A stretch of 64,000 bases of DNA from a virus (lineage: Duplodnaviria > Caudoviricetes). This document shows, one piece after another, positions 27,746 to 58,672 of the stretch. Numbering within the stretch: position 1 is the first letter of the stretch; the number at the start of each line of letters is the position of its first letter. The stretch lies in IMG/VR virus record IMGVR_UViG_3300025389_000011. The stretch is one strand, 5' to 3'. A program made the translations under genes and the position numbers. The notes below the pieces were generated by a model, which ran no database searches, was not told the origin of the DNA, and saw nothing but the letters and a program-made list of their open reading frames with translations.

Positions 27746-27975
27746 TTCTTTAATTCCAATAATATTTCAACACGTTGTAATGCATCATCCATGGTCTTAT
27801 CATCTTGAGCCATTATTACAGCCTGTTTAAGATTTAACCAACGATTAGCAACCTTATCTTCAGGTGCTACTTTAATCATTTCACGTTCGGACGATCCACT
27901 CTTGCGAGAGTAGACCGTCTTACCGCCGTCAGGACTTTCGTATATGATTATTTCTTCAATACTTTTAACTGTCAT
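27742..27975 (-). CDS. Hypothetical protein
   Basis: IYESPDGGKTVY motif, 4-nt overlaps. Confidence 0.7.
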   Translation of the reverse strand: MTVKSIEEIIIYESPDGGKTVYSRKSGSSEREMIKVAPEDKVANRWLNLKQAVIMAQDDKTMDDALQRVEILLELKK

Positions 27976-29249
27976 TTCTCATCATAGAGAGCATAAGTAC
28001 CAAATGGGGGATTTGGATTTTTATCACCATGAATGATCCATGTAGTATCACAATAGTCAGGGTCGCCCCAGCTACCAAAGGGATATCCATCAGTAAACAC
28101 AATCAAACGTTTTGGTTCAATTGCGTTATCTTTAAGATACTTGAAAATACAATCAAAGTCAGTACCACCACCGCCCATTGGTTCGTATTCTGCAATGTCA
28201 TCCATGTTGTCACTATGAAAGTCTTTTGGATTATAAATTTCAGTATCAAAACAGAATACATGGACCTTATAACCATCAAACGCATTCATCATGCCACCGA
28301 TTTCACCTAAGAAATCTTGTGCTTGTTTTTGACTGATACTACCTGACATGTCAAGTGTCACAACAACATCAATTTCTTCACCGGGAGTCATGCCGGGCAT
28401 AATAGCATCAGTATGCCAACCTCTACGTGAAGGACGCATCCAACTATAATCAGTACGAATTGCACTTGTCAAGTTTGTTTGAATCAACTCACGCCAGGGC
28501 ATAACTGGATTAGTAGCCTGCTTGATTAATCGTTCAACACCTTTTGGCAACTGACCTGCCTCGCATGTACTTGCGGCATTAATAATAGCCTGTTTGACTT
28601 CTTGACGAACACGCTCACGTTCCTCAGGACTCATCTTTGGACGTTTATTTTTACCTGTTTGGTCACCATCACCATCACCATCCATGTCACCATCACCATC
28701 CATGTGGTCATCAATCATTTTATCAACCAAATCGTCAATATTGATATGTTGAACATTTTTCATGAGGTCATCATAGATTTCTTCGCTAGGTAGACCATCA
28801 TATTTTGCCTCATACAAACAAGGCACACTTGTAATAAACTCACCTACCTTATGTCGTTTCAAGTCTGCATTAACTGCATAGTCGTTTGCAATATTAAAGA
28901 TTTGATGGTCACGGTCACCTCTACGATCCATGTGGTCATATACCACGTGCAACACTTCATGACCTACTAAGAATTCAACTTCTTTAGGCTTTAGCAACAT
29001 AATGAAACGTGAATTGTAGTAAAACTTCAATCCATCAGTTGCCGCGGTTGAACACCATTCATCGGCATTAACCAATTGCAAACGTGTTGCAAGATTACCA
29101 AAAAATGATTGACGTAATAGTAAACCAACACGGGCAGTAATCAATCGTTCACGGGCTTGTGCATCAATTTTACTGTCAGTTGGACCTACTAGATTTTCAA
29201 ATTTTTTGCTACGCTTACTTTTTTTAGTTGGGGCAATAACGTCACTCAT
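27972..29249 (-). CDS. Metallopeptidase-VWA domain protein (DUF2201-like)
   Basis: HEVLH zinc motif, DMSGS MIDAS, GGGGTDF. Confidence 0.88.
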   Translation of the reverse strand: MSDVIAPTKKSKRSKKFENLVGPTDSKIDAQARERLITARVGLLLRQSFFGNLATRLQLVNADEWCSTAATDGLKFYYNSRFIMLLKPKEVEFLVGHEVLHVVYDHMDRRGDRDHQIFNIANDYAVNADLKRHKVGEFITSVPCLYEAKYDGLPSEEIYDDLMKNVQHINIDDLVDKMIDDHMDGDGDMDGDGDGDQTGKNKRPKMSPEERERVRQEVKQAIINAASTCEAGQLPKGVERLIKQATNPVMPWRELIQTNLTSAIRTDYSWMRPSRRGWHTDAIMPGMTPGEEIDVVVTLDMSGSISQKQAQDFLGEIGGMMNAFDGYKVHVFCFDTEIYNPKDFHSDNMDDIAEYEPMGGGGTDFDCIFKYLKDNAIEPKRLIVFTDGYPFGSWGDPDYCDTTWIIHGDKNPNPPFGTYALYDEK

Positions 29250-29275
29250 ATATGTTCCTTATTTACAATACTAGT

Positions 29276-29304
29276 AGTATACAATAATATTGATTTATTG
29301 TCAA
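29276..29304 (-). promoter_or_regulatory. Sigma70 early promoter
   Basis: TTGACA-17 nt-TATACT. Confidence 0.8.
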
Positions 29305-29332
29305 TTAAAGCGGGACCGAAGTCCCGTTTTAA

Positions 29333-30436
29333 TTAGTTACCGGCTTCTACAATGTATTTACCGTATTTCTTGTGAAACTCATCAAAGTGTTTCAATTGAC
29401 TTGGCTCGATTGGCAACTTGTAAGTTTTCAATGCAATCTTGGCACCCATCACAACCAATTCAGTTTCAAAGTTTTTCATGATGTATGACAAGAAATTGTC
29501 AGCCATGTCATGGAATTGTTTTTGATTAACTTTCTTACCTTCAAGTGCATCACGCAATTCATAGCACATTGAAACGGTCAATGAGTACATTGCACTAATT
29601 TCTTTTACATTAAGTTCAGTTACCTTACCTGACAAGATATCAGCAGGGTCGGGCATCTTACCTGCAATCTTGCGGTGTGCCGCAAACTTAACTGCAAGAC
29701 CTTCACCAACTGCACCTGCTACCAAGTTAAACAAGGTATCAGTATCGGTATCAGCCTCATCATTCAACAAGTCACTAACGAAACACCAGCTACGTGGAGT
29801 AGCGAATGCACGGCTAGCCGATTTGCTATCAAAATCATACAAGTCTTGTTTAGCGAAAGACAAGTAACCAACCACGTCCTTATGGATACCTTTTTCAACT
29901 GCCCAGTTTTGCCATGCAGTAAAGTCAGGGCGCATTTCTAAGTGCAAGAAACGATTAGCAAGGGGCATTGGCATACGATATGTAACACCTTTGTCACTAT
30001 CACGATTACCCGCCGCAACAATTACAACATTGTCAGGCAATACATACTTACCAACACGACGGTTAAGAATCAATTGATAACCCGCAGCCTGCACAGCTGG
30101 ACTTGCACTATTCATTTCATCTAAGAAAAGAACCACGATTGGATATTCTTTTGCAAGTTCCTCATCAGGCAAGTCAACTGGAGACGCCCAATCCATTTTA
30201 TTCAAGTCACGATTAAAGAATGGAATACCACGAATGTCAGTTGGTTCCATTTGCGCCATACGCAAATCAATCATGTGACCACCTAATTCTTCAGTAACTT
30301 CGGCTACCACTTCTGATTTACCGATACCGGGAGGTCCCCACAAAAAGATAGGACGCTTTGCTTTGAATGCACGTAAAATTGCTTTACGGGCCTGTACACT
30401 AGTAATAGTGAGATTGTCTGATACATGAGATGCCAT
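29333..30436 (-). CDS. MoxR-like AAA+ ATPase
   Basis: GPPGIGKS, LFLDEMN, AAGN, LANRF. Confidence 0.9.
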   Translation of the reverse strand: MASHVSDNLTITSVQARKAILRAFKAKRPIFLWGPPGIGKSEVVAEVTEELGGHMIDLRMAQMEPTDIRGIPFFNRDLNKMDWASPVDLPDEELAKEYPIVVLFLDEMNSASPAVQAAGYQLILNRRVGKYVLPDNVVIVAAGNRDSDKGVTYRMPMPLANRFLHLEMRPDFTAWQNWAVEKGIHKDVVGYLSFAKQDLYDFDSKSASRAFATPRSWCFVSDLLNDEADTDTDTLFNLVAGAVGEGLAVKFAAHRKIAGKMPDPADILSGKVTELNVKEISAMYSLTVSMCYELRDALEGKKVNQKQFHDMADNFLSYIMKNFETELVVMGAKIALKTYKLPIEPSQLKHFDEFHKKYGKYIVEAGN

Positions 30437-33299: not shown

Positions 33300-34184
33300 T
33301 CATTTTGCTTTGAATTTAATGTATTCTGTAATGATATCTGCAACGTCTACATTACAGAATTTTTCAAAGCCAAAGAATCCTGGATTACTGTTAGCCTCAC
33401 AAACTCTGAAACCGTTTTCGTCAAACAATAAATCAATACCGGCAATGTCTAAACCTAATACATGTGCTGTTTCTCTAGCCATGAATTCAATTTCTTCTGT
33501 GAGAGGGTAATTTTCACCAGTACCGCCACCTGTGATATTAGCACGGAAGTCTCCTTCAGGCGCTGTACGTTTCATTGCACCTACAACTTTACCGCCAATA
33601 ACTAACACACGCAAATCTTCACCTGGTCTATGGCCCATGTATTCTTGTACAATCATGGTTTTCTTGTTTCCAAGTTTTTCTACAAACTCTACAAGTTTTT
33701 TATAATCTTTTTTACGTTCACATAAATGAACACCTTCGCCATAGCTACCGGTAACAACTTTAACTACACAGGGGAATCCAATGTTTTCACTAACCAATTT
33801 ATCTTCAATAGGCCAACGTACCAACATTGTGTTCGGGATCGGAATTCCTGCACGACTTAGTATTTGACTGGTACGCAATTTATCTTTAACAGTTTCGATT
33901 GCAACGCTTCCATTTACACATGGAATACCGCATTGTTCAAAATGTCTGATAACTGCTAATTGGAATGGGAGAATACCTGCACCTAATCTAACTAGTACTA
34001 GTCTAGGTAACTCCATGTCTTGACCTTTATACTTGATACCTTTACGAATATCTCTATTCACGACAATATCAAAATCGTCAGGGTGAGCCATCATGGCTTT
34101 AATGCCCTTGCTTTCAAAACTTTCAATCAATTTATTTGATTCGTATTCGTTTCGTTCTAACTTAGTTAATACTAATACTGTCAT
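33300..34184 (-). CDS. rimK: RimK-family ATP-grasp glutamyl ligase
   Basis: DKLRT.Q.L, P.VVKV..GS.G.GV, QEY, DLRVLVIGG, FRANI..GG, CEANSNPG. Confidence 0.88.
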   Translation of the reverse strand: MTVLVLTKLERNEYESNKLIESFESKGIKAMMAHPDDFDIVVNRDIRKGIKYKGQDMELPRLVLVRLGAGILPFQLAVIRHFEQCGIPCVNGSVAIETVKDKLRTSQILSRAGIPIPNTMLVRWPIEDKLVSENIGFPCVVKVVTGSYGEGVHLCERKKDYKKLVEFVEKLGNKKTMIVQEYMGHRPGEDLRVLVIGGKVVGAMKRTAPEGDFRANITGGGTGENYPLTEEIEFMARETAHVLGLDIAGIDLLFDENGFRVCEANSNPGFFGFEKFCNVDVADIITEYIKFKAK

Positions 34185-35914: not shown

Positions 35915-36826
35915 TTACGCTGGAATAAAATCAATACCACTACCTGCTAATACGCCTGTAGTTGCTGGAGCAATACCAACTAATCCAATTGTTTGTTGGA
36001 ATGCTGTTAGATGTGCCGCGGCATTTAGTAATGATACTTCAGTCGCTGTACCTGTTGCTAGTTGAGTAACGAAAGGCAATGCTTGTGTTGGTGTGGGTGC
36101 AACACCCATAACGTTAGTATAAACGTTATTAACGAATGTAGCATAGTCTGGGTTAGCTGTTTTGAATGGTGTGCTACCAACAATAGCTTGTGCAATACCT
36201 AAACTAGTTGTACCTGCATCTTCTAATTTGATACCAAGACCTTCGTATGTAGTATTAACTGTTCCACCGAAACCTGCTTTAAGCAATGCATATACATCAC
36301 CGGCGTTACCATTGATGTCAAATGCTGTGGCTTTATCTGTAAAAACTACTCTCTCATGTTGTTCCAACTTGAATGATACTGTTGTATTCAAAGTACTTGT
36401 TACATTAATAACCTTGTTTGTAGTGTCATTAACCACTGTATAGTCTGCGCTCTTGTCATTGAATGTATATGTGTCAACACCTGTAGTGCCTGTTACATCA
36501 ATAACTGTGTTTATAGTTCCATTACCAATTGCGCCTGCACCAACTGAACCAAATGTTTTAATTGTACCATTTGTTCCGATTGATCCAACTGTGATAATGT
36601 CGTTGTTAACACCCGTTGTTCCACCTAAACTTGCGCCTGGGATAGTAATCGTGTCACCAACGGCATATCCTGTACCAAGATTTGCTGTTTCAATAACAGT
36701 AGTGTACACACCATTTGTTTTTGTTACATCAAATTTAGCACCAGTACCAGCACCAGTTGTAGTACCAGTAACTGCCGTGTAAGTTGAGTTGATTGGTAAT
36801 TCGCCAATTGTTATCGTAGTTGTCAT
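35915..36826 (-). CDS. Thr/Gly-rich surface protein with DUF4214/S-layer-like C-terminal domain
   Basis: G.GYAVGDTITI beta motif; FVNNVYTNVMG.AP helical motif; no signal peptide. Confidence 0.55.
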   Translation of the reverse strand: MTTTITIGELPINSTYTAVTGTTTGAGTGAKFDVTKTNGVYTTVIETANLGTGYAVGDTITIPGASLGGTTGVNNDIITVGSIGTNGTIKTFGSVGAGAIGNGTINTVIDVTGTTGVDTYTFNDKSADYTVVNDTTNKVINVTSTLNTTVSFKLEQHERVVFTDKATAFDINGNAGDVYALLKAGFGGTVNTTYEGLGIKLEDAGTTSLGIAQAIVGSTPFKTANPDYATFVNNVYTNVMGVAPTPTQALPFVTQLATGTATEVSLLNAAAHLTAFQQTIGLVGIAPATTGVLAGSGIDFIPA

Positions 36827-36905
36827 GTTTTTAATTCCTTTTTAAAACGTTATTATAATTTTTATTATCTAAGATGTATGTGATTGTAGTCACAAAGATT
36901 GAAAG

Positions 36906-36929
36906 AAAGCCCACATATAAGTGGGCTTT
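36906..36929 (-). terminator. Intrinsic terminator closing the tmRNA transcript
   Basis: AAAGCCCAC/GTGGGCTTT 9-bp stem followed by CTTTC on minus strand. Confidence 0.8.
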
Positions 36930-37090
36930 GGTATTTTCTGTTTCGAGGTATATCCTACCCAATAGTGGCTTACGCCGCTAAAGAATAAACGCTATCGTTT
37001 GCATTTATAAGTTTTGCTTGATTTACGGTCATCGCCTACCGAGTTGTCCATTTACGTACTTATCACCCTGTCGAAACCAAGTCAGGCCCA

Positions 37091-37213
37091 TCAAAAATTA
37101 TCATTCCATAGCTGTTCTAATTCAGGATCTACTGGGCCATGATCGGCAACAAGTGCCCATACATTTACTACTACCCAGATAATACCTATTGAATAAAACC
37201 AATGCCATTCCAT
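37091..37213 (-). CDS. 40-aa membrane microprotein inside the tmRNA intervening sequence: MEWHWFYSIGIIWVVVNVWALVADHGPVDPELEQLWNDNF
   Basis: ATG at 37213, TGA at 37093-37091, AAAGG RBS 6 nt upstream directly after the CCA; occupies 123 of 135 IVS nt. Confidence 0.7.
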   Translation of the reverse strand: MEWHWFYSIGIIWVVVNVWALVADHGPVDPELEQLWNDNF

Positions 37214-37295
37214 ATAATACCTTTTGGTGGACCTGGCGGGAGTCGAACCCGCGTCCAGAATGCCTTTCGGCTCACTTCATACAACAATAACTCTC

Positions 37296-37324
37296 AGTAT
37301 ATATTTATTTGATAATACTGTCAA
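37296..37324 (-). promoter_or_regulatory. tmRNA promoter: sigma70 consensus with embedded TAAATA
   Basis: TTGACA (37324-37319)-17 nt-TATACT (37301-37296); TAAATA at 37307-37302. Confidence 0.8.
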
Positions 37325-37490
37325 TAACGGATTTACCCGTTATTTTACGGCTTCTGTATGCTTACCGTCAAGACTTTTTTTCAATAACTTAAACCAAAGT
37401 TTTTTAACTTTTTCTAAATTATGTTCAAACTCAGCCTTGTTGAGTTTCATGATTAGTTTTTTAACTTTCATAATAAACCCTCCTTGACTA

Positions 37491-38078
37491 TTATTTATTC
37501 GCTAGGGGATTGTCTACAGCTTTTTGAATTTTAGCATCAACTTCTTTCTTTAATGCTACCATTTCACGGTCAATGTCTTTACGCATTTGAGCATTTTCTT
37601 GGCGCATTGCTTGAAGTTCTGCACGTTCTTTATCCAAATCTTCACGAACACCTTTACGCAAGTCACGCATTTCGGCGTCACTTTCACGGTTTGCATCCTT
37701 AACATAACGTTCAACTTGTTCAGTAACAGTTTCAGTTCTACGGATATCACCTTTTAAATCATTCTTGATGTCACGTGTATAGTCAGAAGTTTTTTCGCTA
37801 TTTTGTTCAATAACGGCTAGTCGTTTATCAAATTCACTTAAGTCTGGTGCTACATATTTGGCAATTTTATTTTTCATGTCCATATAGTCTTTGTACACCT
37901 CAAAACAACCATATAGTCCGCCCAATATAGAACTTACCAAGGTAAATGCTACCATTAGTTTTGCCGGAGTAAATTCATATCCACCAATACTAATAACAGT
38001 ATCTTTACTTGCGTATTTTTTTACAGCTTCTTCTGCTTGGTCAATTTTTTCATTGACATCTTTAATTTCTTCTGTCAT
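37491..38078 (-). CDS. Single-TM coiled-coil protein
   Basis: TM LMVAFTLVSSILGGLYG followed by a long heptad region. Confidence 0.75.
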   Translation of the reverse strand: MTEEIKDVNEKIDQAEEAVKKYASKDTVISIGGYEFTPAKLMVAFTLVSSILGGLYGCFEVYKDYMDMKNKIAKYVAPDLSEFDKRLAVIEQNSEKTSDYTRDIKNDLKGDIRRTETVTEQVERYVKDANRESDAEMRDLRKGVREDLDKERAELQAMRQENAQMRKDIDREMVALKKEVDAKIQKAVDNPLANK

Positions 38079-38079
38079 A

Positions 38080-40002
38080 TTATTTTCCTTTATATTGCTG
38101 GTCTACCATCTCTTGATGTAGTCTGTCGCTTGATAACTGTCTTAATGCTCTTACGTTATCAATCGTTGTTTGATTTTTATAAATTTCTTTTGGTTCATAA
38201 AAAGCCGCATCTTTCAAACTAAACCCATACATATCGTATCCAGCTGGTTGTGTTGCCATTAATGCTATACTTACACCATTGGCTGCTAAATCATTTGGTT
38301 CAACATTCTTTTTAACTGTATCTGTCTTTTGTTCTACTGTTGTAGTTTGTATTTCGGGTCTAACTTGATTAATGGGATCAGTAGGATCACCTGCTAATTT
38401 TGAAGTAGCAGTTGCACTTGATGTTAATGTAGGTGAAACTAAATTTAATGCACCTAAATCTGATTTTAATTGCATAGCCTGTAACGATAATGCTTGTTGC
38501 TGTTGCGTTTGTTGTACTGCTTGTTGTGTACTTTGTTGTTGGTTAGCAAAAACTAGTGGTTGTGAACTTAATGCAGTACTTGTACTTGCAGTTACTGGTC
38601 CTAAATTTTTACTTGTAATACTATTATTCACTACAGAATTTTGTGCCTTATAAGGGTTTAGTGCATCTACAGTTGAACCCTGTGCTTGTGACTGTGATGA
38701 AGTATCTTGCGTTGTGGCATTAACTGAATTTTGTGCATTCATGTTGTCTAAGATTTGCATTGCCAAATCTTGTTGTTTGTTGTTCGAACCCGGTTGGCCA
38801 GGCTGTTGAGGACCGGGTTTATTTTCATTTGTACCCCCTGGCTGAGGGCCAGTCTTTTGCTGTTGATTTTGTTGTGTATTAGTAGTTGCTTTAGCTTGTT
38901 GTGCAGATGTTTGTTGGCTAGATCCTGTTTTAGCTTGTTGTGTAACTGATTGTTGATTATTTGCAGAACCTGCTTGTTGTACAGGACTATTACTTGGACC
39001 CACAATAGGTCCAGCTGGTGTTGGCTGTGATTGTGTAGTTGTCGTTTGTGATTGCTGTGTAGTTTGTGTGCTACTTGTATTACTAGAATTACTATTTGAA
39101 ACAATTGCAGGAACACTATTACCTAAAGTATTGATATTTCCTGTACCAGAAATGCTTACACTTCCCACTGTTTGTGAGCCTGTGGATTTATTATCTGTAC
39201 TACTTGTGTCTGTTGTTGCGGCAGCTGTAAAAGTTGCAGTTGATTGGCTGGCAGCTTGTGTTGCTTGATTAGAGACTGTTGTTCCGGGATTAACAGTACC
39301 ACTAGATGAAGTTTCTGCTATACCGTAATTCAAACTTAAACTAGGGTCACGTACTCTTGGACCATAATAACCTGCCCAATATCTATCATCTTGGCCCGCA
39401 AATGCTACAGTTAAACTTCCTAAACTACTTGCTGAATAAATTGAATTAAAATTTTGTGTTCCTGAAATTGTTTGGAAATTATAATTTCCAGTTAGATTCA
39501 TTTTGTAGCTTTCTAACACGCTACCTGTGTTACTGGTTAACCCATAACCGGCATATAAAGTACCTGAAGTTTGCCCCTCATTATCAACAATAAAACTATA
39601 ATTAAATCCACTCACATAAATATTATTTCCTTTACCTGCTAATGCCGTACTGATTGCAATTGCTTGTTGTGCTATACCAAACCCATAACTAAAACGTATA
39701 GTGTTAGTATCTTGGTTCATAGCTGGATTAGGTCCACCACTACAACATTGACCTACCCCTGCATTATTAGTATACGTAATGCCGGACCATCCTGTTTTGT
39801 TGATAAGATTATCTGTAGTTGCCGTACTACTTAGAACCGGTGTTATTGATGAGGTATTTTGCCCAGTAACATTTGAAGTGGTATTTACCACTCCAGTGGT
39901 TAAATCAACTAGTACTTGGCTATTAGAATAACTTGTACACAAGAGCACCAAGCAAAGCGCCAAGGCCAATCTTTTCATAAGTGTCATCCTTTTTCGCCTC
40001 AT
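38080..40002 (-). CDS. Secreted protein with beta-sandwich-like N-domain and Q/T/S-rich linker
   Basis: Signal peptide LALALCLVLLC, low-complexity middle, conserved-looking C-terminal FY.PKEIYKNQ. Confidence 0.75.
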   Translation of the reverse strand: MRRKRMTLMKRLALALCLVLLCTSYSNSQVLVDLTTGVVNTTSNVTGQNTSSITPVLSSTATTDNLINKTGWSGITYTNNAGVGQCCSGGPNPAMNQDTNTIRFSYGFGIAQQAIAISTALAGKGNNIYVSGFNYSFIVDNEGQTSGTLYAGYGLTSNTGSVLESYKMNLTGNYNFQTISGTQNFNSIYSASSLGSLTVAFAGQDDRYWAGYYGPRVRDPSLSLNYGIAETSSSGTVNPGTTVSNQATQAASQSTATFTAAATTDTSSTDNKSTGSQTVGSVSISGTGNINTLGNSVPAIVSNSNSSNTSSTQTTQQSQTTTTQSQPTPAGPIVGPSNSPVQQAGSANNQQSVTQQAKTGSSQQTSAQQAKATTNTQQNQQQKTGPQPGGTNENKPGPQQPGQPGSNNKQQDLAMQILDNMNAQNSVNATTQDTSSQSQAQGSTVDALNPYKAQNSVVNNSITSKNLGPVTASTSTALSSQPLVFANQQQSTQQAVQQTQQQQALSLQAMQLKSDLGALNLVSPTLTSSATATSKLAGDPTDPINQVRPEIQTTTVEQKTDTVKKNVEPNDLAANGVSIALMATQPAGYDMYGFSLKDAAFYEPKEIYKNQTTIDNVRALRQLSSDRLHQEMVDQQYKGK

Positions 40003-41050
40003 CTAATTTTGGCATCTTTTGAGAATTTTCTTCCCAAGCTGCCTTAGCCTGTTCACCAATCTTACCTTCGTATGGGCAAGGTGTACCTGCCTGCATCATA
40101 GCATCAAACACACGACGGTCTTGACACATAGTAGCAACTGCGGCAACTTTCATACCCATGTCATATAGTGTTTTAGATAATTTTAATCTTTCACAATTCA
40201 TATCACGAACTGTGCCACCACTACTTACCCCAAATACTTGTGTTTGTACTGAACCAGATGAACCAGTTGTACACAAATCTTGATTACCACCGCTCATCAT
40301 AGCAGGGGCAACTGCTGTTGGTGGAGGTTGAATCACACGTTGTGTAATATCACTTGTATTGATATTGTTGTTAGTCATACTACCACTTTGTATATTTTGA
40401 TTAACATTATTGTTACTACTACTTGTGGTAGCAGTTGTTTGGTTAATGTTATTGTTTGTAGCAGTAGTTGTATTAACGTTGTTGTTATTGTTTGTTAATG
40501 TGCCACTTTGTACATTATTGTTATTATAAGTCATAGTACCGCTGTTAACATTGTTATTTGTATTAACGTTAGTACTCGTTGATGCTGAAGTATTAACGTT
40601 ATTATTGTTATTAGTCATTGTACCATAGTTATAATTTGTGTTAGTAGCAGTACTAGTACTTGTATTAACGTTATTGTTATTGTTCGTCATGGTACCTGTA
40701 TTGACATTGTTATTATTATATGTCATAGTACCAGAGTTAACGTTATTATTGTTATACGTCATTGTACCCGTATTAACATTATTGTTGTTATTGGTATTTG
40801 TTGCCGTTGAGGTACTAACATTGTTATTATTGTTAGTATTCGTAGACGTTTGATTTGCGTTAACCGTAGTTTGGTTAACGTTAGTAACAGTTCCACTATT
40901 AATTGTGTTTACTGTACTAGTACTTGTGCTGTTACTATCTACTAATGAACTAGTAGTATACCCACCCTGATTAATCAAGGTGTCTGCAAAAACATATGGC
41001 CCACACAGGTAAGCAAGGAGTATCCCCCCTGCGAGAATTCTTTTTATCAT
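39923..41050 (-). CDS. Secreted Asn/Thr repeat protein with Cys-containing C-domain
   Basis: Signal peptide, about 10 T(M/L)TxNNNNVN(S/T)G-type repeats, C-domain CERLKLSK..AA...MCQD..CP; TAAATA at 41092-41097. Confidence 0.8.
   Translation of the reverse strand: MIKRILAGGILLAYLCGPYVFADTLINQGGYTTSSLVDSNSTSTSTVNTINSGTVTNVNQTTVNANQTSTNTNNNNNVSTSTATNTNNNNNVNTGTMTYNNNNVNSGTMTYNNNNVNTGTMTNNNNNVNTSTSTATNTNYNYGTMTNNNNNVNTSASTSTNVNTNNNVNSGTMTYNNNNVQSGTLTNNNNNVNTTTATNNNINQTTATTSSSNNNVNQNIQSGSMTNNNINTSDITQRVIQPPPTAVAPAMMSGGNQDLCTTGSSGSVQTQVFGVSSGGTVRDMNCERLKLSKTLYDMGMKVAAVATMCQDRRVFDAMMQAGTPCPYEGKIGEQAKAAWEENSQKMPKLDEAKKDDTYEKIGLGALLGALVYKLF
40420..40870. repeat. Coding low-complexity repeat (AAT/AAC-rich Asn runs)
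   Basis: Recurrent ttattattgtt/gttattg units corresponding to NNNNVN. Confidence 0.7.
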
Positions 41051-48783: not shown

Positions 48784-48888
48784 TCATTTATAAATAAAAG
48801 GATCTCTTTTACGTAATTCTTTAATGCGTTTACGATAACGTAATTCCATTTTGATTTTATAGTATATATTTTTAATCCAACTAAACAT
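48784..48888 (-). CDS. 34-aa basic microprotein MFSWIKNIYYKIKMELRYRKRIKELRKRDPFIYK (not in ORF track)
   Basis: Fills the gap exactly; start overlaps the upstream stop region; manual translation. Confidence 0.7.
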   Translation of the reverse strand: MFSWIKNIYYKIKMELRYRKRIKELRKRDPFIYK

Positions 48889-50155
48889 TTGTGTTCTCCT
48901 TGTTTATAGTGTCAATGATTTCTACAATGTCAGGGTAAATCTTTTTCCAATCTAGATTTCTTCTAACATCTAAATCATCTAAGAATCCATGTAAGTCGTT
49001 TACAGCTTTAACACTTACGGGAGTAGCCAACATTTGCTTTTTAATACCGGTTAATGAATTGATTTCCGGGCTATAATCTTTTTTATATTTATTAAGTGCT
49101 TCAATGGCTTTGTCTACATATGGCACCAAGTGCTTTCCAAAGTTATACGGGTTAAAGCAGTCAGGTCTAACCACTGTGTTCCAATTGAGGTTGGCAGTTT
49201 TATTTTTCAATATCCATTGACCACAGAACATGTCAATTAATTTATGCAATGCAGGTAATGTTACAGCAGTTAGTGTAGCATGTATTTGCAACACAACTCC
49301 CCAACTTTCTAACACGGTATTGATATTCTTTTCGCAATTTTCTAAGTTAAGACCATAACGTGCATACTCTAATTCTGGTCCCCAACAATCAATACTTGCA
49401 GTAATTTCAAAACGTTTTAATTTTTTAGCTTCTACTAATTTTTGAATTCTATTGATTTTTTCCTTGAACTTTTCAGGCTCATGATTTAGATTTGAAAAGA
49501 TACGCCAAATTAAATTTGGATTGTCATGTGTTTCAAAAAATTCTAAATGCTGTTCAAATTCTTTTTGATACATGGGCTCTCCACCCAATGTATTGTAAAT
49601 TACTAAATCTTTTGAGTTTTCATGCATCCATTCCCAGAATTGTTTTACATACTCATCATAGTTATCTCTGTCATCTGCTCTAAAGTTACTATAGTCATCA
49701 TTGAATTGGCTTTTACCATACTTACGTACTTCTTGTTCAATAACGCTACTAAAGCCGGGGGTACAATAAACGCATGATTGATTGCACACGTTGCTAAAGT
49801 ATACTTCCAACAGTCTAGGGTTTACGTTGATTTCTTTAGGGTTTGTTTCTAATTCATACGGAAGCAATTCAACTGATTTGTTTGCAAATCCAATTCTATC
49901 GCTTACCCCACCTGCTTGTTCAACATTGCGACAATATTCGCAACCGTTACCTGGCCATATACCTTCTAACATTTTTTCTCTATCACCTAATTTGCCCGGA
50001 TGATTATGAAAATCTTTTAGTGTATCTTTATTTAATTTCCAATGAAATCCACGATGGCAACTAGCAGTAGTTCCTCGATTTAAGAATAATGTGCTCCATG
50101 TCCATTTATATAGACATGCGGCATCGTTTACTATAGGGAATGTTTTTTTGTTCAT
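48881..50155 (-). CDS. Radical SAM protein
   Basis: CNQSCVYC, GGEP, SIDCWG, N-terminal C..KW...SCH. Confidence 0.9.
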   Translation of the reverse strand: MNKKTFPIVNDAACLYKWTWSTLFLNRGTTASCHRGFHWKLNKDTLKDFHNHPGKLGDREKMLEGIWPGNGCEYCRNVEQAGGVSDRIGFANKSVELLPYELETNPKEINVNPRLLEVYFSNVCNQSCVYCTPGFSSVIEQEVRKYGKSQFNDDYSNFRADDRDNYDEYVKQFWEWMHENSKDLVIYNTLGGEPMYQKEFEQHLEFFETHDNPNLIWRIFSNLNHEPEKFKEKINRIQKLVEAKKLKRFEITASIDCWGPELEYARYGLNLENCEKNINTVLESWGVVLQIHATLTAVTLPALHKLIDMFCGQWILKNKTANLNWNTVVRPDCFNPYNFGKHLVPYVDKAIEALNKYKKDYSPEINSLTGIKKQMLATPVSVKAVNDLHGFLDDLDVRRNLDWKKIYPDIVEIIDTINKENTNV

Positions 50156-50922
50156 ACTATATTTAAGGTTCTTTTAACCAATGGGAATAATTCTTGTCTG
50201 AAATACATTAAATGTCCGGCTTCATTAACATGATTGTCGATAAAATGATAATGGTTCCAATTGTGTTCAAAGTCCATACGCCCAGAAAAATCATACCTAG
50301 CTATATGTCTATATTGCAAATGTTTAAGTATTTCTAATTCTTTGAATTTAGTATTCATATCAGAATGTATTGTTTCGGGATTACACCATAAAAATTTTAT
50401 ATTTTTAGATGTTACAAACGAATAAGTTGCCAATGTTGACATTAAACTTTGATAATACATTATTGTGTCATTTGTAAGATATTTGTAAAACTGAACTCTT
50501 GCATTTCTATATTCATTATATGCGATTGGATATAATGGATTATTTATTTTATCCGGGTCATCGCCCCAAGCAGGGCACCACGGCACAATCATTTCAGGAT
50601 CTTTATACCCTGCTAAACTAAAACGATCCATGAATGTTCCATTAAATAACACCAATGCTATATCGTCATGTTGATTGATATAATCAACTGTGTCCTTGAA
50701 AATTCCAAATTGACTATTGCCCGGGCTTGCTAAATTAACTACATTATAATATGGTAACTGTTGATTTAATAATGTTGCCCAGCAGTATTCGCTAGAAGGG
50801 TCATTGGGATATTCAAAGGGTTTACCTAAATGAGTTTTTGTTTTCTCATCAAAATAATATATTCTATCCTTACAACCTTGACCATATGTATAGCTATCCC
50901 CTACTACTAATATTGTACTCAT
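50152..50922 (-). CDS. SGNH/GDSL-like hydrolase
   Basis: GDSYTYG, NLASPGNS, DNHVNEAGH. Confidence 0.8.
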   Translation of the reverse strand: MSTILVVGDSYTYGQGCKDRIYYFDEKTKTHLGKPFEYPNDPSSEYCWATLLNQQLPYYNVVNLASPGNSQFGIFKDTVDYINQHDDIALVLFNGTFMDRFSLAGYKDPEMIVPWCPAWGDDPDKINNPLYPIAYNEYRNARVQFYKYLTNDTIMYYQSLMSTLATYSFVTSKNIKFLWCNPETIHSDMNTKFKELEILKHLQYRHIARYDFSGRMDFEHNWNHYHFIDNHVNEAGHLMYFRQELFPLVKRTLNIV

Positions 50923-51674
50923 TAACTAATTCCTAACTGTTTCATAAAGGGCATTATAACTCTATCAAAATAAATTTTATGTCCTGTGTCATTGCAATGT
51001 CCATCAGGCTGATAACATGTTTTATTAAATTCTTCATTTTCTCTTCCTGAAAAATCATACCTAAATATATGAGGGAAATAGTTAGGTACTAGTTTTGATA
51101 TTTTGTACTTTAGTTTAGAATAATCAACGCCAACCAGAGGCATAGACCAAGCAAATTGTGCGTTACATGCTTTGGCTACCCCATATATTCCCATGATACT
51201 GGTAAATGCATTTTGTAGACCAATACTATCATTATACAAGTATTTTGCATACATCATTTTTGCAGTACTATAATCTTTAGGATCATTGTCTCTGTAAAAA
51301 GAACCATCAAATTTGATAGACCAAGTTACTGGATCTTCTGGATTAAGATAGCTTGCCACTTCAATTCTGTCCATAAAAGCTCCGGCCGCTACAATTAAAT
51401 AGTCTGAATTTATATTGCTACTGGCATGTAGTGTCATTAAATCTCTAAACATTCCTGAATATGAATGTCCCGGTTTACTTGCATTTATTACCAATGCATT
51501 GTTAATATTGTTTTGTAACAAAGAACCCCAGCAATAATTGCTAGGTTTCAAGTGAAAGTCGGATGCCATACTTCCCACCCATACTTTCTTTTCAATATCA
51601 AAGTAATAATTTTTGTCTGAGCACCCATGTCCAAATGTAAAACTATCACCTAGCAGTATAATTCGTTTTATCAT
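50922..51674 (-). CDS. SGNH/GDSL-like hydrolase
   Basis: GDSFTFG, NASKPG.S, DGHCNDTGH. Confidence 0.8.
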   Translation of the reverse strand: MIKRIILLGDSFTFGHGCSDKNYYFDIEKKVWVGSMASDFHLKPSNYCWGSLLQNNINNALVINASKPGHSYSGMFRDLMTLHASSNINSDYLIVAAGAFMDRIEVASYLNPEDPVTWSIKFDGSFYRDNDPKDYSTAKMMYAKYLYNDSIGLQNAFTSIMGIYGVAKACNAQFAWSMPLVGVDYSKLKYKISKLVPNYFPHIFRYDFSGRENEEFNKTCYQPDGHCNDTGHKIYFDRVIMPFMKQLGIS

Positions 51675-51675
51675 T

Positions 51676-52428
51676 TCAATCTTTTTTGTCTAAATCTGTG
51701 GAGTATCTTTCGATAATTTCTTTGTTCTTGCAAGTAAGTTCAGGATTTTTATACAAGTCAATAATTTCAGGATATAGTTCCCAACACTCAGAAATTATTT
51801 TAGCAAAAATCATGTTTCTTTCTTTAGATAAATGACACCAACGATTGTCAACACGATTCATATTGGGCAATTCATTTCTACTTACTGATATTAAATTGTA
51901 TAAACATGGACCATGACGGTTATCTAAGTTGGTACTTAAATGTTTGTCTCTACGGTCTTCAAATGTTAACACATTTACTAATTTAATATTTTTGTTTCTG
52001 CATATATCATTTACATCATTGAAGATTTTTTGTTTTACCCAAACATCAAACTCAGTATCTATATTTATAGCACGACCAGTAAGAATTCTTACCATTTCAA
52101 GTTCTTGTTCAATTGTTAATTCTTTGTTTCTGCGTGTTTCATATAACTCATCGGGAGTGTTTAAGAAATGTAATCCTTCACAACCATGTGGCAAATGATG
52201 TATACGATGCAATGAAGAATGCATGAACACAATGTGGTCAAATTGGTCATGATGTGCTAAAAATTGCTGATATGCATACCACGTGCTGGTACCTGTTTTA
52301 CCATAAGTGGTTATCTTGTTTCCACCTTCTTCAATAAATCTAATCCAAGATTCGTCTTCCTTAAAGGGACTATCAGGATTGTGCGGAGCTCTATCCGCAA
52401 AACTATCTCCAAATACACCTATTCTCAT
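51676..52428 (-). CDS. SGNH-like hydrolase
   Basis: GVFGDSF, GKTGTS, WCHLS..RN. Confidence 0.75.
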   Translation of the reverse strand: MRIGVFGDSFADRAPHNPDSPFKEDESWIRFIEEGGNKITTYGKTGTSTWYAYQQFLAHHDQFDHIVFMHSSLHRIHHLPHGCEGLHFLNTPDELYETRRNKELTIEQELEMVRILTGRAINIDTEFDVWVKQKIFNDVNDICRNKNIKLVNVLTFEDRRDKHLSTNLDNRHGPCLYNLISVSRNELPNMNRVDNRWCHLSKERNMIFAKIISECWELYPEIIDLYKNPELTCKNKEIIERYSTDLDKKD

Positions 52429-52431
52429 ATA

Positions 52432-53628
52432 TCATCCTTTTTTGATTACTTTATTTACATATAACTTGTCCATGGCAGATTTTTTACCACATGTTTCTAA
52501 ACAGAATAACAATTTACCACCTTCAATAGTTGGTCTACTCCATCCATCTAAAAAGAATTTTTGAAAGTAAGGACCGTTTAATACTTCTACCATATTATAT
52601 ACTTTCAAATCAAATTTATCAAGCCCATATTCTCTAATCAATGTGTTAAACTGAAAACGTGAATATGAACTATGAAATTGACCAAATACTCCACCCAAGA
52701 AACAACAAGGTAACATATACCCATTGGCTGATATGTATACTTCACCATGTTCAGGGTGTTCAATTGATTTACACGCTATGCCATCATTTTCTAAACTTTT
52801 ACCAAACTCGCTAATAATAGGTATATGTCTATCTTGTGCAGTACTTAATACACCTTTACTAAAATCAACTTTGTAACCTAAAGGCGGAGTATAAACTTCT
52901 TCTTTAGAAAAACTAGCATTTGCAGGCCAAATACTGTACTCGAAATATCCTTCTTTGTCATAAACATTAATAGGAGTTGGTTTGTCATCGTATTCACCAA
53001 AACCTAAAGGATTTTTCATTGAGAATATAAATCCCAACTCTTTTGCCAACTTTTGTGCTTCTTCTACTTGATGTTTATTGTGGTCAAATAACAGCCATTC
53101 CCATATTGCTTTGGCCCCGGTAGCACTATATGCTCTCATGTTAGCAATAACTTTTTCCCACTTGACCCCTCTGCGATAAATGTGATTTGTGTCTTCTAGT
53201 CCATCAACACTAAACACAACACCCGGTTGGTTAAACAAGTGATTGTCCCAAAATTTGGGAGTACGGTTTTGTTGTTCCGCAAAAAACTCACCCATGCTAG
53301 TCCAAAACTCAGTATTACGCATACCACCATTGGTTCTTACTTGTTGTATAACTTTACTTGAATGCTCTGAAAAATATTTCATGATTGGTAACAAGTCAGG
53401 AGCCATTCCAGGATCTCCAACATTACCGCAATAATTAATTCCAATTAAGTTTTGTGCTATCTCTACCGGAACCATTCTTTTAATATCTTCAAGCGATAGT
53501 TCTGTAAGTTCTAAGTCTGGTACTACTGCACCACCAGAAAAATTTCTACTACATGCCGGGCAACTGGCATTGCATCTACTTGATAACTCAATGTGCAGTC
53601 TTGCCACTTTATGATACATCTTATCCAT
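52432..53628 (-). CDS. Radical SAM protein with C-terminal SPASM/twitch-like Cys
   Basis: CNASCPAC, CGNVGDP, SVDGL, PCC...CLETC. Confidence 0.9.
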   Translation of the reverse strand: MDKMYHKVARLHIELSSRCNASCPACSRNFSGGAVVPDLELTELSLEDIKRMVPVEIAQNLIGINYCGNVGDPGMAPDLLPIMKYFSEHSSKVIQQVRTNGGMRNTEFWTSMGEFFAEQQNRTPKFWDNHLFNQPGVVFSVDGLEDTNHIYRRGVKWEKVIANMRAYSATGAKAIWEWLLFDHNKHQVEEAQKLAKELGFIFSMKNPLGFGEYDDKPTPINVYDKEGYFEYSIWPANASFSKEEVYTPPLGYKVDFSKGVLSTAQDRHIPIISEFGKSLENDGIACKSIEHPEHGEVYISANGYMLPCCFLGGVFGQFHSSYSRFQFNTLIREYGLDKFDLKVYNMVEVLNGPYFQKFFLDGWSRPTIEGGKLLFCLETCGKKSAMDKLYVNKVIKKG

Positions 53629-54881
53629 TATTTTTTTCCTATATATTTTGCTAAATTGTCCGGTTTATTTCTACGCTTAGTGTACTGTTCAAAAAAGATA
53701 TCACTATCAACACGCAATTGTTGTTGATTTTCTTTCACTAAACCACTATCTAACATAGTTAATAATCTGTTGCAATGTTCTTGTTCAACAGGTAACAAAT
53801 CATTACTAATACTATCGTAAAATTTTGTATACTTGTCAATATAAAAATCACGTTCTTGTCGTGTTAGGCAACCAAAACCTTGAAAGTCTGGCTTGTCAAC
53901 CATGTTAATTGATATATAAGGTTTTACTTTGGTACGCTTACGTATGTCAATAATATCCAAATACATTTGATCCAAACTCTGTAACGCAATTGCGCTTACT
54001 GTGGTGCTGATTGTAAATTCTTTAACTGTACTGTTACCTAGTCTTTCTACATTTTCTAACCATTCACTATATACCATACCCTCACGAATAAACTCCGCAG
54101 TTTCTCCTGCGCTTTCATTACTGATATTCATGCGTAAGTTTGTAAGTTTACTAATCTTGTCAAAAAATCTGTCCATAACAACGGGCTTTTGACATAAGTT
54201 ACTGTGTATCACGCATTCAATGTGTGGGTTCATTTGTGTCATCATTTCAAACACACGAAACACTTCTTCATGCATTAAGGGTTCGCCACCACTAACACGT
54301 ATGCTTTCTAGTCCATCTGCAACGGTAGTGAACCAATCCCAAAACAAATTCATATCGGGAGGGTCAATCATTTGTTGTATCTCAGCAATATCTTTTTGAT
54401 AATGTCTGCGGTCGTCAGTTGTAATGTCCTGATAGACTCCTTGATTTCTAATATCATTCATCCATGCTGTACTGAACTGCGGACTGCAATAGCTACATGC
54501 TAAGTTACATGTATTCTGAAATGCTAATTCTAATGCTTTGGGCTTGAATACGTAGTTAGGATTTTTATAATCATCTGCACTTAGATGGTCTTTGAAACTT
54601 AAACTTTTACGTGTTCTGTCACTACGCAAGCCTAAGTTTTCATAATGCCAACAGCTATTACATGCAGGAGGTTGTTCACCTGCTAACATACGCTTTTGTT
54701 GTTCACGTTTTTCAGCAGGATTATAAAATGTATCTACTGTGTTGCCCACTTGAATAAAGGGAGTATAATGACAACTTGCTATTTTACCCGAGTATACCCA
54801 AATACTTGCTTCATGGAACTTAGCCAAACACATTGTTGGACTGGTTTCATCACGTATCTTGAAAAGTTTTTTCTCATCCAT
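53628..54881 (-). CDS. Radical SAM protein
   Basis: CNLACSYC, SGGEP, N-terminal CLAKF...SCH. Confidence 0.9.
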   Translation of the reverse strand: MDEKKLFKIRDETSPTMCLAKFHEASIWVYSGKIASCHYTPFIQVGNTVDTFYNPAEKREQQKRMLAGEQPPACNSCWHYENLGLRSDRTRKSLSFKDHLSADDYKNPNYVFKPKALELAFQNTCNLACSYCSPQFSTAWMNDIRNQGVYQDITTDDRRHYQKDIAEIQQMIDPPDMNLFWDWFTTVADGLESIRVSGGEPLMHEEVFRVFEMMTQMNPHIECVIHSNLCQKPVVMDRFFDKISKLTNLRMNISNESAGETAEFIREGMVYSEWLENVERLGNSTVKEFTISTTVSAIALQSLDQMYLDIIDIRKRTKVKPYISINMVDKPDFQGFGCLTRQERDFYIDKYTKFYDSISNDLLPVEQEHCNRLLTMLDSGLVKENQQQLRVDSDIFFEQYTKRRNKPDNLAKYIGKK

Positions 54882-56224
54882 TATAATACCTTGATTTTAT
54901 TGTACTGTTCTTTTTGCAATGTTACGTTTAAGTTGTTGTGTATAATATAATTTTTCATATTGATATGTTCTGGATAAACATCAAAAAAACTTTGACTGCG
55001 AATATCATCTAGTTTTGTTGTGATATGCCAAAAGTCTCTAAGACTTTCATCAATACCCGCATGGTATTTTGATGTATCCGACCACATAAATTTAATTGCA
55101 GTATCATACATACTTACCACATGTTCGCAGTTACCAAAAGTTTTTAGCCACTCAATGTTTTCATTTAGTTTGATTTCAATTTCACGCTTTTTCCAATCAG
55201 GAATATTCTTCAAACAATAATAGGGAGGAGTATCTAATGGATTAACCATGATTTTATCAGGTTGAATATATCCCAATTCAGTCCATTCTCTATGAAACTC
55301 TACCAAGTTAAATGCATTAGGCCAACTTAATGTATATGCTATACTAAAGTTAACGTGCGGAGTTTGTTCCATCATGCGTTTACGATTTTCTACAACTTGT
55401 TTCCAATCTGTGCCATTACGCCAGTATTCGGCTTTTTCATGACTGCCATCTAAACTTGCATATACATTTACGTCTTTGAACTTTTTCCAATACTCTAACA
55501 CATTATCAAAATTCTTTAACTTGAAATTAGTAAAGTTTGTGTTGTATCTGATAGTAATATCTGTGTTGCCAAACTCAATCAATTTATCTAAAATTTGATA
55601 GTGTTCTTTTTGCATCAATGGCTCACCACCTGCAAAGTAAATGCACTTAGCTGTTGCTAAGTGTGGTAATGTTTCTAAAAATGCTTGTTCTTCAGTTTTA
55701 CCTGGATATTGAAATCCATCGTCTTTGTCTCTGCGCTCAACCAAATTGTATAGTTTTCTATGGTCTAATATCCATCCAGTGCTATAGTGAGGGGCACAAC
55801 TACGGCAACTTAAATTACATAGGTTATTAAATCGTACATCAATGTAATACAATTTATGTTCATCTAATGAACCATCAGGGTTAGTACTTGCTACAATATC
55901 TTGTATGTCTTTGCTTTTTTCAAAAAACAATTTGTTGTATTCATTCTTGTGTGCGTAATCAATTTCCGCACGTTGGTTACATATGTGACAATTGGGTTCT
56001 TCAATGCCGTTTAAGAAATCTAAACGCATTTTTTTCATTTTGTCATTGTTCCATATTTCTTCTAATGTGTTTTCTTTAAGACTACCCACTTGTTCATTGT
56101 GGCTATACACACAGCAAGGTTTAACATCACCTGGTGGACCTACATATTGATGAATCCATGGAAAGATACAAAATGTTTTACTTGTTTTAGCTAATGCTAA
56201 TGGATCAAACGTTTGATTGGACAT
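54881..56224 (-). CDS. Twitch/SPASM-domain radical SAM protein
   Basis: CIFPW...PCC...CHIC, CNLSCRSC, AGGEP, SLDG. Confidence 0.92.
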   Translation of the reverse strand: MSNQTFDPLALAKTSKTFCIFPWIHQYVGPPGDVKPCCVYSHNEQVGSLKENTLEEIWNNDKMKKMRLDFLNGIEEPNCHICNQRAEIDYAHKNEYNKLFFEKSKDIQDIVASTNPDGSLDEHKLYYIDVRFNNLCNLSCRSCAPHYSTGWILDHRKLYNLVERRDKDDGFQYPGKTEEQAFLETLPHLATAKCIYFAGGEPLMQKEHYQILDKLIEFGNTDITIRYNTNFTNFKLKNFDNVLEYWKKFKDVNVYASLDGSHEKAEYWRNGTDWKQVVENRKRMMEQTPHVNFSIAYTLSWPNAFNLVEFHREWTELGYIQPDKIMVNPLDTPPYYCLKNIPDWKKREIEIKLNENIEWLKTFGNCEHVVSMYDTAIKFMWSDTSKYHAGIDESLRDFWHITTKLDDIRSQSFFDVYPEHINMKNYIIHNNLNVTLQKEQYNKIKVL

Positions 56225-57521
56225 AATTTGTTATTTTTTCATACATATAGGGAAATACATCGCTGAACTTTTCATTTCTAACATTATCTAATAGTTCAGT
56301 TTCGTGTAAGAATTTTTTCAACATTTCTTTATCACTTGGTTGACTATTCATTAATATGATAGCATTTTCCCAATGACTTATTGATTGGTCATATGTAAAA
56401 TTCTTTTCTTGTGTTTCTTCTAACCATTTTAAATGATTTTTAATTTTTTCTGTTACTTCTTGTTTAACATCAGGAGGCAATATATTGGTTCTGAAATGTT
56501 GTGGGTAATGTAATGTGTTCAAATAAAACCCAAACTTATCAAACAATTTATTCTCACACATGTATCTATGCAAATCAACTGCTTGGTAACAATTTAATAA
56601 ACTATATACTGCGGTGATGCCATAATCTTTATTAGGCAAATATTCTTTAGCGGTCTTGATCCATTCAAGTGCAACGTTCCAATCAAAACCTTTACGTATA
56701 TATTCACCTTCTGCGCCCATTGCATCAACACTACCCACAATAAACACATTGTCAAACTTCTGTAGTAACTCAAATGCATTATCGTCTTTAAGTGTATATG
56801 TTGTAAGATTGGTATTGTAACGTATCTTAACATCAGTTTTGTTTTTAGCAATCAATAATTTTAAGAAATCATAGTGGTCTTGTTGCAACATAACCTCACC
56901 ACCGCTAAAGTGTACTTCAGTATATGTATCAATGATATTAACCAGTTCTTCTAAATCTGTGTGTACATTTTCTGAATCATTGCTTAACAATCTTGAGTTT
57001 GTGGTAAAATGATGACGACCTAATTTAATTTCATCAGGAATCCAAGCTGTGCTACAACGTGTACCACAACTACGGCATTTCAAATTACACAAGTTATTAA
57101 AGATTAAATCAACTGTTGAGATTTTTAAATCATTATCAACTGTGCCATCTGTGTCACTATGCTTTAATATGTCTTCTAATTTGTTGGCATTGGTTTGACT
57201 TAATGCATCAGGGAATCGTGAATAGCGTTCATTAAATCTTTCACGCATACTAACAATACCACTATCCTCTTCGCTCCAACATTTAGTGCAAGGTTCAGGC
57301 TTTTTACCATCTAAAAAGTCCTTACGTAACTGATTCCATTTGTCATTGTGAAATGTATCAATCAATGTACTGTTGTTCCAATTGCCTAATACATTGTCTT
57401 TGGTATGTGCAGGATTATAATAACAGCATGGTGTTATCTCTCCGTCTGGTTCTGTATGTATTTGTAGCCAAGGTAGACTGCAAAATGTTTTTGGTAATTG
57501 TTCTACTGTTAAATTAATCAT
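56205..57521 (-). CDS. Twitch/SPASM-domain radical SAM protein
   Basis: CSLPW...PCC...CTKC, CNLKCRSC, SGGE. Confidence 0.92.
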   Translation of the reverse strand: MINLTVEQLPKTFCSLPWLQIHTEPDGEITPCCYYNPAHTKDNVLGNWNNSTLIDTFHNDKWNQLRKDFLDGKKPEPCTKCWSEEDSGIVSMRERFNERYSRFPDALSQTNANKLEDILKHSDTDGTVDNDLKISTVDLIFNNLCNLKCRSCGTRCSTAWIPDEIKLGRHHFTTNSRLLSNDSENVHTDLEELVNIIDTYTEVHFSGGEVMLQQDHYDFLKLLIAKNKTDVKIRYNTNLTTYTLKDDNAFELLQKFDNVFIVGSVDAMGAEGEYIRKGFDWNVALEWIKTAKEYLPNKDYGITAVYSLLNCYQAVDLHRYMCENKLFDKFGFYLNTLHYPQHFRTNILPPDVKQEVTEKIKNHLKWLEETQEKNFTYDQSISHWENAIILMNSQPSDKEMLKKFLHETELLDNVRNEKFSDVFPYMYEKITNYVQSNV

Positions 57522-58671: not shown

Positions 58672-58672
58672 T

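Follow-up and report, generated by a model that had tools for sequence, protein, structure and literature searches.

The locus studied here raised two questions: whether a phage carries a complete two-piece tmRNA gene of its own, and what occupies the spacer between the two halves of that gene. The locus was analysed within a window, as we call the whole stretch of 64,000 nucleotides of viral DNA. An earlier note on this DNA had described a circularly permuted, phage-encoded tmRNA at 36905-37289; the 40-codon open reading frame (ORF) that fills the tmRNA spacer had been overlooked in it.

Anatomy of the tmRNA gene

The search with ARAGORN gave a permuted tmRNA on the minus strand (36879-37317), with the tag ANDSVYSLAA*, as the sole RNA gene of the window. 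It was placed in the class "Permuted", with the 3′ tRNA domain (37263-37225) ahead of the 5′ domain. With the covariance models of Rfam the scores were 134.4 bits for beta_tmRNA (RF01850; E 8e-41; gathering score 84), all the model positions 1-331 being matched between 37338 and 36904, and 138.8 bits for tmRNA_permuted (RF04321; gathering score 47). Both are significant, and this was one of the checks that the earlier note had proposed. The coordinates that it gave were accurate for the RNA itself, the ARAGORN call being wider. Its remark that the usual callers often miss permuted tmRNAs did not apply to this gene, which ARAGORN and Rfam detected immediately.

All the elements of the gene were located on the minus strand. 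A sigma-70-type promoter, TTGACA-17 nt-TATACT (37296..37324; 11 of 12 matches), lies in a region that is within the Rfam beta_tmRNA model, and the transcript start predicted from it, at about 37289, is the 5′ end of the acceptor piece. This piece, the 3′ tRNA-like half (~37225..37289), comprises the P2 5′ strands, the T-arm GCGGG/UUCGACU/CCCGC (37252-37236, with UUCGACU as the T-loop), the acceptor 3′ strand CAGGUCC (37235-37229), the discriminator A (37228), and the encoded CCA (37227-37225). A spacer of 135 nt (37090..37224), whose excision in maturation is expected, separates the CCA from the 5′ GGGCCUG. The coding piece (36904..37089) was matched by the covariance model at every position and begins with the acceptor 5′ strand GGGCCUG (37089-37083), which is followed by the D-loop-like UUGGUUUCGAC, the P2 3′ strands, the pseudoknot region, the tag frame, the 3′ helices, and a terminal hairpin. 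In the tag frame (37002->36970) ARAGORN identified the GCA resume codon, the peptide ANDSVYSLAA, and a UAA stop. The G+C-rich terminal hairpin and the U-rich run after it (36930->36904) serve as the terminator and close the coding piece at its 3′ end.

This anatomy agrees fully with what had been read earlier from the same letters. The 3′ tRNA-like half, with its T-arm, discriminator A, and encoded CCA, does precede the 5′ half; direct reading of the sequence gave a GGGCCUG/CAGGUCC acceptor stem of 7 bp that includes the G3:U70 pair; the AGGGUG-CAUUCU pairing that had been noticed is the P2 helix of the Rfam model; and the unit has its own promoter and terminator. Taken together, analysis of the sequence confirmed that the locus is a two-piece tmRNA gene, complete and of the beta type, in an uncultured jumbo myophage of fresh water.

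The possibility of an independent permutation, which had been raised before, found no support. The gene fits the beta-lineage model end to end, promoter included, and it shares the pseudoknot-region sequence, the stem that closes the spacer, and a UGAU motif with bacterial beta-lineage tmRNAs (RF01850; the Alcaligenaceae Advenella, Pelistega, and Brackiella). By this full-length match and these shared elements an independent origin was excluded. The tags are also similar, ANDESYALAA being a bacterial one and ANDSVYSLAA that of the window.

Phage context and host factors

The surroundings of the gene were examined as well. As many as 73 of the 80 window ORFs lie on one strand, and genes for a T4-type large terminase (Terminase_6N/6C), a gp32-like protein, a RecA/UvsX-like protein, and a UvsW-like helicase were recognized in the window, which by this gene content is phage DNA. 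The best match of the terminase was that of the Pseudomonas jumbo phage PA5oct (50% identity), and the next ones belonged to other jumbo phages. No nucleotide relative of the 20 kb around the locus was found among 50,697 INPHARED phage records; in other phage records the nucleotide matches to the tmRNA were confined to the T-arm region. Identical copies of the locus were present on freshwater metagenome contigs with lengths up to 224-252 kb.

As tmRNA genes are common integration sites and IMG/VR includes prophage ends, the gene could be thought bacterial, whether as host DNA from an att site or the end of a prophage, or as part of a mis-assembled contig. Against this, the locus is mid-way in 64 kb of co-oriented phage genes, at least 7 independent metagenome contigs carry the tmRNA unit with 100% identity between the same phage flanks, and no integrase was detected among about 45 window ORFs scanned, a subset of all. 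Related jumbo-phage records carry permuted tmRNAs too, with 4 of the 5 related viral records containing one. We consider a bacterial or artefactual origin highly improbable.

For the gene just upstream of the tmRNA (37491-38078), over 550 relatives were found in IMG/VR, the longest of their contigs reaching 339 kb, and the homology to these relatives ends at 37489; therefore the tmRNA occupies a variable slot. The flanking genes (35915-36826, 37491-38078, and 38080-40002) gave nothing informative in PHROGs and Pfam.

Several other genes of the window deserve mention, all on the minus strand. Between the 195-aa gene and the promoter of the tmRNA there is a lysine-rich ORF of 43 codons (37340-37471), which in all the sibling contigs is called as a gene of 36-43 aa. 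Located 3 kb downstream of the tmRNA, a RimK-like ATP-grasp protein (33300-34184; phrog_2599, ribosomal protein S6 glutaminyl transferase) is the product of a second translation-related gene of the window. Ten radical-SAM genes, of 377-469 aa each, extend over 48881-63657, with three unannotated ORFs of about 250 aa (50152-52428) splitting the first from nine contiguous ones; in 4 of the 10 proteins the SPASM iron-sulfur domain is N-terminal, before the radical-SAM core, which is an unusual order. At 27972-30436 a MoxR-type AAA+ ATPase adjoins a DUF2201 metallopeptidase/VWA protein, forming a pair. Finally, the gene at 39923-41050 has internal repeats, with many offset BLAST alignments to relatives within 40350-40900, which suggests a repeat-rich tail-fibre-like protein.

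SmpB was searched for in three ways. It was found neither when two bacterial SmpB proteins were compared by tblastn with all six frames of the window (best E 1.2), nor by a Pfam scan of the 15 size-compatible window ORFs, nor in a search of five related viral records, of which three have a completeness of 95% or more. The earlier statement that smpB is absent from the window was therefore correct, and the borrowing of host SmpB that it proposed is reasonable to infer from the lack of the gene in the window and in the related records. A dependence on host SmpB, AlaRS, and RNase P would be consistent with these searches. As to the host, a pattern scan of genome contigs detected the same pseudoknot-region sequence as in the window in Alcaligenaceae and in some lake MAGs, and the 401 sampled genomes of that bacterial order gave 5 tmRNA-type matches (72-83% identity) and 3 short terminator-hairpin matches. 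Our guess is that the phage infects a freshwater betaproteobacterium.

By comparison with published phages, the OM43 phage Melnitz has a two-piece ssrA (Buchholz et al. 2022, PMC9004378), and the same work reported 53 two-piece tmRNAs in public phage genomes, mostly aquatic, with 17 of 47 Melnitz-like contigs carrying one. The earlier proposal that the phage supplies its own trans-translation RNA stands as far as a complete phage gene is concerned, but not as a new kind of thing: phage two-piece tmRNAs as such are already known, and the window adds one more case. The tmRNAs of Melnitz, pelagimyophages, and cyanophages (PMC9004378) are, like that of the window, permuted ssrA genes on large lytic-type aquatic phages, with their own early-type promoter and without a phage smpB. 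The differences are that the window belongs to another lineage, that of a jumbo phage with PA5oct as the closest cultured relative, and that its tmRNA is beta-type, not alpha-type. Unlike the Melnitz-type ssrA, the window locus had no match to a glutamine-riboswitch family when scanned with Rfam, whether the gathering score or E<=1 was applied. With the tmRNA alone, a freshwater jumbo-phage lineage would join the phages that have their own ribosome-rescue RNA and depend on host SmpB. A coding spacer is not mentioned in the Melnitz paper (PMC9004378), whereas the spacer of the window is coding. No description of a coding tmRNA spacer was found in the literature searched, whose coverage was incomplete.

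The spacer ORF and its closing stem

The spacer ORF (P0001; 40 codons, ATG to TGA, minus strand, 37213->37091) covers 91% of the spacer, and a single base separates its TGA from the 5′ G of the coding piece, which is the predicted RNase P site. Directly after the CCA there is a Shine-Dalgarno (SD)-like AAAGG followed by a 6-nt gap to the ATG (37214..37224, minus strand), and this segment doubles as the 5′ strand of the closing stem. The 3′ strand, AUGAUAAUUUUU (37094..37105, minus strand), overlaps the last codons of the ORF and in the fold pairs with AAAAGGUAUUAU (37225-37214) at 11 of 12 positions.

When 131 viral and 24 bacterial spacers were compared, 92% of the closing-stem positions paired in register, against 41-73% when the strands were slid, and several pair types were observed per position, indicating covariation. 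From this comparison we take the closing stem beside the processing sites to be real. Of the 24 bacterial genes, ORF-less ones included, 22 kept the UGAU motif ahead of the 5′ G. Since the stem and the UGAU pre-exist, the phage ORFs would use the 5′ strand of the stem as their ribosome-binding site and the UGAU for their stop. It may be that the SD is masked in the precursor until the closing stem opens. The fold of the whole spacer was not unusually stable (z -1.28).

Taking these features into account, one may suppose that the tmRNA is real and the spacer merely a structured non-coding processing element, the frame being a by-product of RNA constraint and AT-rich composition. Conservation and covariation of the stem in phages and bacteria alike, and a UGA stop that lies within a UGAU also kept by ORF-less genes, are what such an element would present; with the z value given above, structure alone is not decisive. 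The evidence that opposes it comes from the distribution of the ORFs among spacers and from the way in which the peptide varies.

The IMG/VR scans yielded at least 168 permuted tmRNA genes in at least 301 loci. Among the matches listed, the unique viral spacers of 84 nt or more numbered 63, and in 27 of these an ATG-ORF occupied at least 80% of the spacer. The same criterion gave 0 on the reverse complement, and when the spacers were shuffled 300 times with the terminal UGAU kept, the mean was 1.3 and the maximum 7. Moreover, the SD-like motif right after the CCA accompanied the ORFs, being present in 22 of the 27 ORF-bearing viral spacers versus 8 of the 36 ORF-less ones. The viral spacer ORFs encode 23-73 aa and are mostly mutually unrelated; several would be single transmembrane helices.

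The bacterial beta-type genes examined were 29, with the spacer extracted in 24 and five sized whole. The 24 spacers were hairpins of 29-75 nt, except for three longer ones of 99, 114, and 147 nt, and the five further genes measured 326-336 nt in all. In comparison with these relatives, whose spacers are short hairpins without an SD-led ORF, the spacer of the window is about 100 nt longer and coding. One of the three longer bacterial spacers does carry an ORF, TAAGGAAAT-led and of 37 codons (L336, 583-1031); it belongs to a beta-type permuted tmRNA on a 46-kb contig binned in an "Alteromonadales" MAG, and this is probably a phage contig that was mis-binned.

In the protein database the P0001 peptide was identical on 13 contigs, and nine close variants were found, eight of 40 aa and the ninth a 53-aa call in the same frame with a start further upstream. 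A frameshift or stop occurred in none of 10 natural variants, and the frame was intact as well in 7 distant members of the family. In an alignment of 12 distinct tmRNA units from siblings, the SD was 100% identical and the acceptor strands 93-100%; the ORF, as the best-conserved part of the locus, was 92-100% identical, against only 26-81% for the tmRNA bodies. Identity was lower in the T-arm (53%), the D-loop region (54%), and the pseudoknot region (57-81%), and it was 26-88% in the tag, 32-68% in the 3′ helices, and 45-57% in the promoter. Two qualifications apply to these values: the SD and the last codons are inside the closing stem, so that RNA-level constraint accounts for part of the conservation at the two ends of the ORF, and the sibling spacers could owe part of their high nucleotide identity to recent recombination and not to selection.

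The proportion of synonymous changes exceeded that of nonsynonymous ones (pS > pN) in 10 of 10 P0001 pairs, and dN/dS was 0.16-0.64 in the eight pairs with estimable dS and saturated in two, values that are noisy for so short an ORF. The variable columns by codon position were 21/13/27. An exhaustive profile search delineated a wider family of 32-50 aa, numbered P0001-P0017, in which the motifs MEWHWFY and DPE-x-E-x-x-W-x-DN flank a core that varies yet remains hydrophobic. In the structure of P0001 predicted with AlphaFold (pLDDT 83) a helix at residues 5-22, a loop, and a helix at 30-39 are seen; the first helix is strongly hydrophobic and predicted to be transmembrane, the tail is acidic, and the net charge of the peptide is -6. 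A feature search of the ESM Atlas with the peptide gave best scores of 0.80-0.82, which is chance level.

Family members were also located in other settings. In L355-L357 one is inside the spacer of another beta-type tmRNA. In L358 a homologue lies between tRNA-Ala(UGC) and tRNA-Gly(GCC); it starts 14 nt from the CCA and ends 6 nt short of the next tRNA, and its junction is CCA-AAAGG-N6-ATG as in the window, and in L359 another is about 150 nt upstream of an alpha-like tmRNA. These homologues outside tmRNA spacers keep the amino-acid motifs with synonymous or conservative codon changes, which argues against a frame imposed by the RNA of the spacer. For so short a sequence the evidence is of moderate strength, but it indicates purifying selection on the ORF at the protein level, outside the RNA context too. 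Considering all these lines, a spacer that is only a processing element is unlikely, and the comparisons of sequence favour a real gene for a small predicted membrane peptide.

Mosaic siblings and the proposed mechanism

The siblings of the locus have one cargo gene and differing tmRNA bodies. Those of the window, L312, L319, L321, and L322 are of the beta type, while L302 and L313-L316 have another tRNA-like domain, with the T-loop GGCAGUG, for which only the alpha model passes the gathering score; their coding regions are beta-like. A classification of the latter as plain "alpha-type" was rejected, L313 scoring 79.6 bits with the alpha model but 73.6 with the beta model. By these features the GGCAGUG siblings are mosaics of an alpha-like tRNA-like domain and a beta-like coding region.

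Other combinations were observed. L321 is a recombinant in which the upstream flank is of the window type and the downstream flank of the L322 type, with the junction within the tmRNA unit. In the viral L161 (4516-4911) the tag is that of the window and the pseudoknot module almost exactly so, while the tRNA-like domain differs; its acceptor piece ends in ACC-G, the CCA not being fully encoded, and its spacer is unrelated, of 95 nt and without an ORF. In L234 the tmRNA is in the genomic slot of the window with an unrelated cargo of 49 codons. From all these loci it follows that the tRNA-like domain, the spacer cargo, and the coding region assort as separate modules. The siblings, with one cargo and a varied tRNA-like domain, tag, and pseudoknot region, constitute a natural experiment on interchangeable tmRNA parts within one phage-host system.

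In two sibling phage tmRNAs (L312, 1554-2043, and L355, 1316-1808) the tag is long, with 27-29 residues, and terminates in LAV or ALV instead of the canonical LAA. Such tags may go unread by the usual proteases.

Taking the tmRNA and its spacer together, we consider it likely that the locus combines a working, host-factor-dependent two-piece tmRNA with an excised spacer that encodes a small membrane peptide, both under the same early-type promoter. Processing, charging, tagging, and translation, as we infer them from the sequence, would proceed in this way. Host RNA polymerase would produce a single precursor from the phage sigma-70-type promoter, and the two halves would pair to form the acceptor stem. 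Host RNase P would cleave 5′ of G37089 and host 3′-processing enzymes would expose the CCA at 37225, leaving an acceptor piece and a coding piece joined by base pairing. Host AlaRS would then charge the tmRNA via G3:U70, and together with host SmpB the charged tmRNA would rescue stalled ribosomes and append ANDSVYSLAA, a tag that resembles the host type. The spacer ORF would be translated from the same early transcript, either from the precursor or from the excised fragment closed by the stem. In this scheme the coding spacer outweighs the tmRNA in interest; if true, a stable-RNA precursor doubles as a messenger, tRNA-processing enzymes participate in phage gene expression, and a class of small phage proteins escapes the annotation pipelines in which RNA genes are masked.

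As purposes of the phage RNA the earlier note had suggested that it might allow survival when host tmRNA or tRNA is cleaved, or that it might redirect rescue. In the second case the RNA would be a decoy or competitor that titrates host SmpB, or would re-route tagging, instead of serving ordinary rescue. Compatible with it are the SmpB searches of the window and the five related records, in which no phage SmpB was found, the long LAV or ALV tags of siblings, and the precedent of a phage tmRNA reduced to the tRNA-like domain (mycobacteriophage DS6A type), which inhibits host tmRNA (PMC4131195). The gene of the window, however, is full length, with an intact resume codon, a host-like tag ending in LAA, G3:U70, and a canonical T-loop; this is the anatomy expected of a working tmRNA and not that of a truncated decoy. 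We regard the decoy or re-routing function as decidedly unlikely for this gene, and ordinary rescue with host factors is the reading retained.

Since unrelated cargos fill the slot in other phages, we think that the slot is a general expression site and not a functional partner of trans-translation. A broader proposal is that the spacers of permuted tmRNAs and the gaps between tRNAs are a hot-swappable expression slot of phages, and for this we would give about an even chance. According to it, host tRNA-processing enzymes would free a stem-closed mini-mRNA, whose ribosome-binding site and stop would be made from the closing stem and the UGAU, and different phages would insert different small early genes. 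In the lineage of the window the cargo would have been kept more faithfully than the tmRNA, and recombined with both beta-like and alpha-like tRNA-like domains.

Two known arrangements help to place such a slot. Mitochondrial transcripts are processed by tRNA punctuation, and phage tRNA gene clusters contain small ORFs. The likeness is that a message between tRNA-like 3′ and 5′ ends could be freed by RNase P and 3′ processing; the difference is that in the window the two "tRNA ends" are halves of one permuted tmRNA, and the message would be the piece removed. The intervening sequences of 23S rRNA contain S23p ORFs. Group I introns with homing-endonuclease ORFs are inserted in tmRNA T-loops (PMC11915505). 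In both of these cases, as proposed here, a coding insert is taken out of a stable RNA precursor during maturation. Unlike them, the window has no intron or self-splicing, the spacer being native to the permuted gene, and, by comparison with intron ORFs, the spacer cargo consists of small, diverse, non-nuclease peptides.
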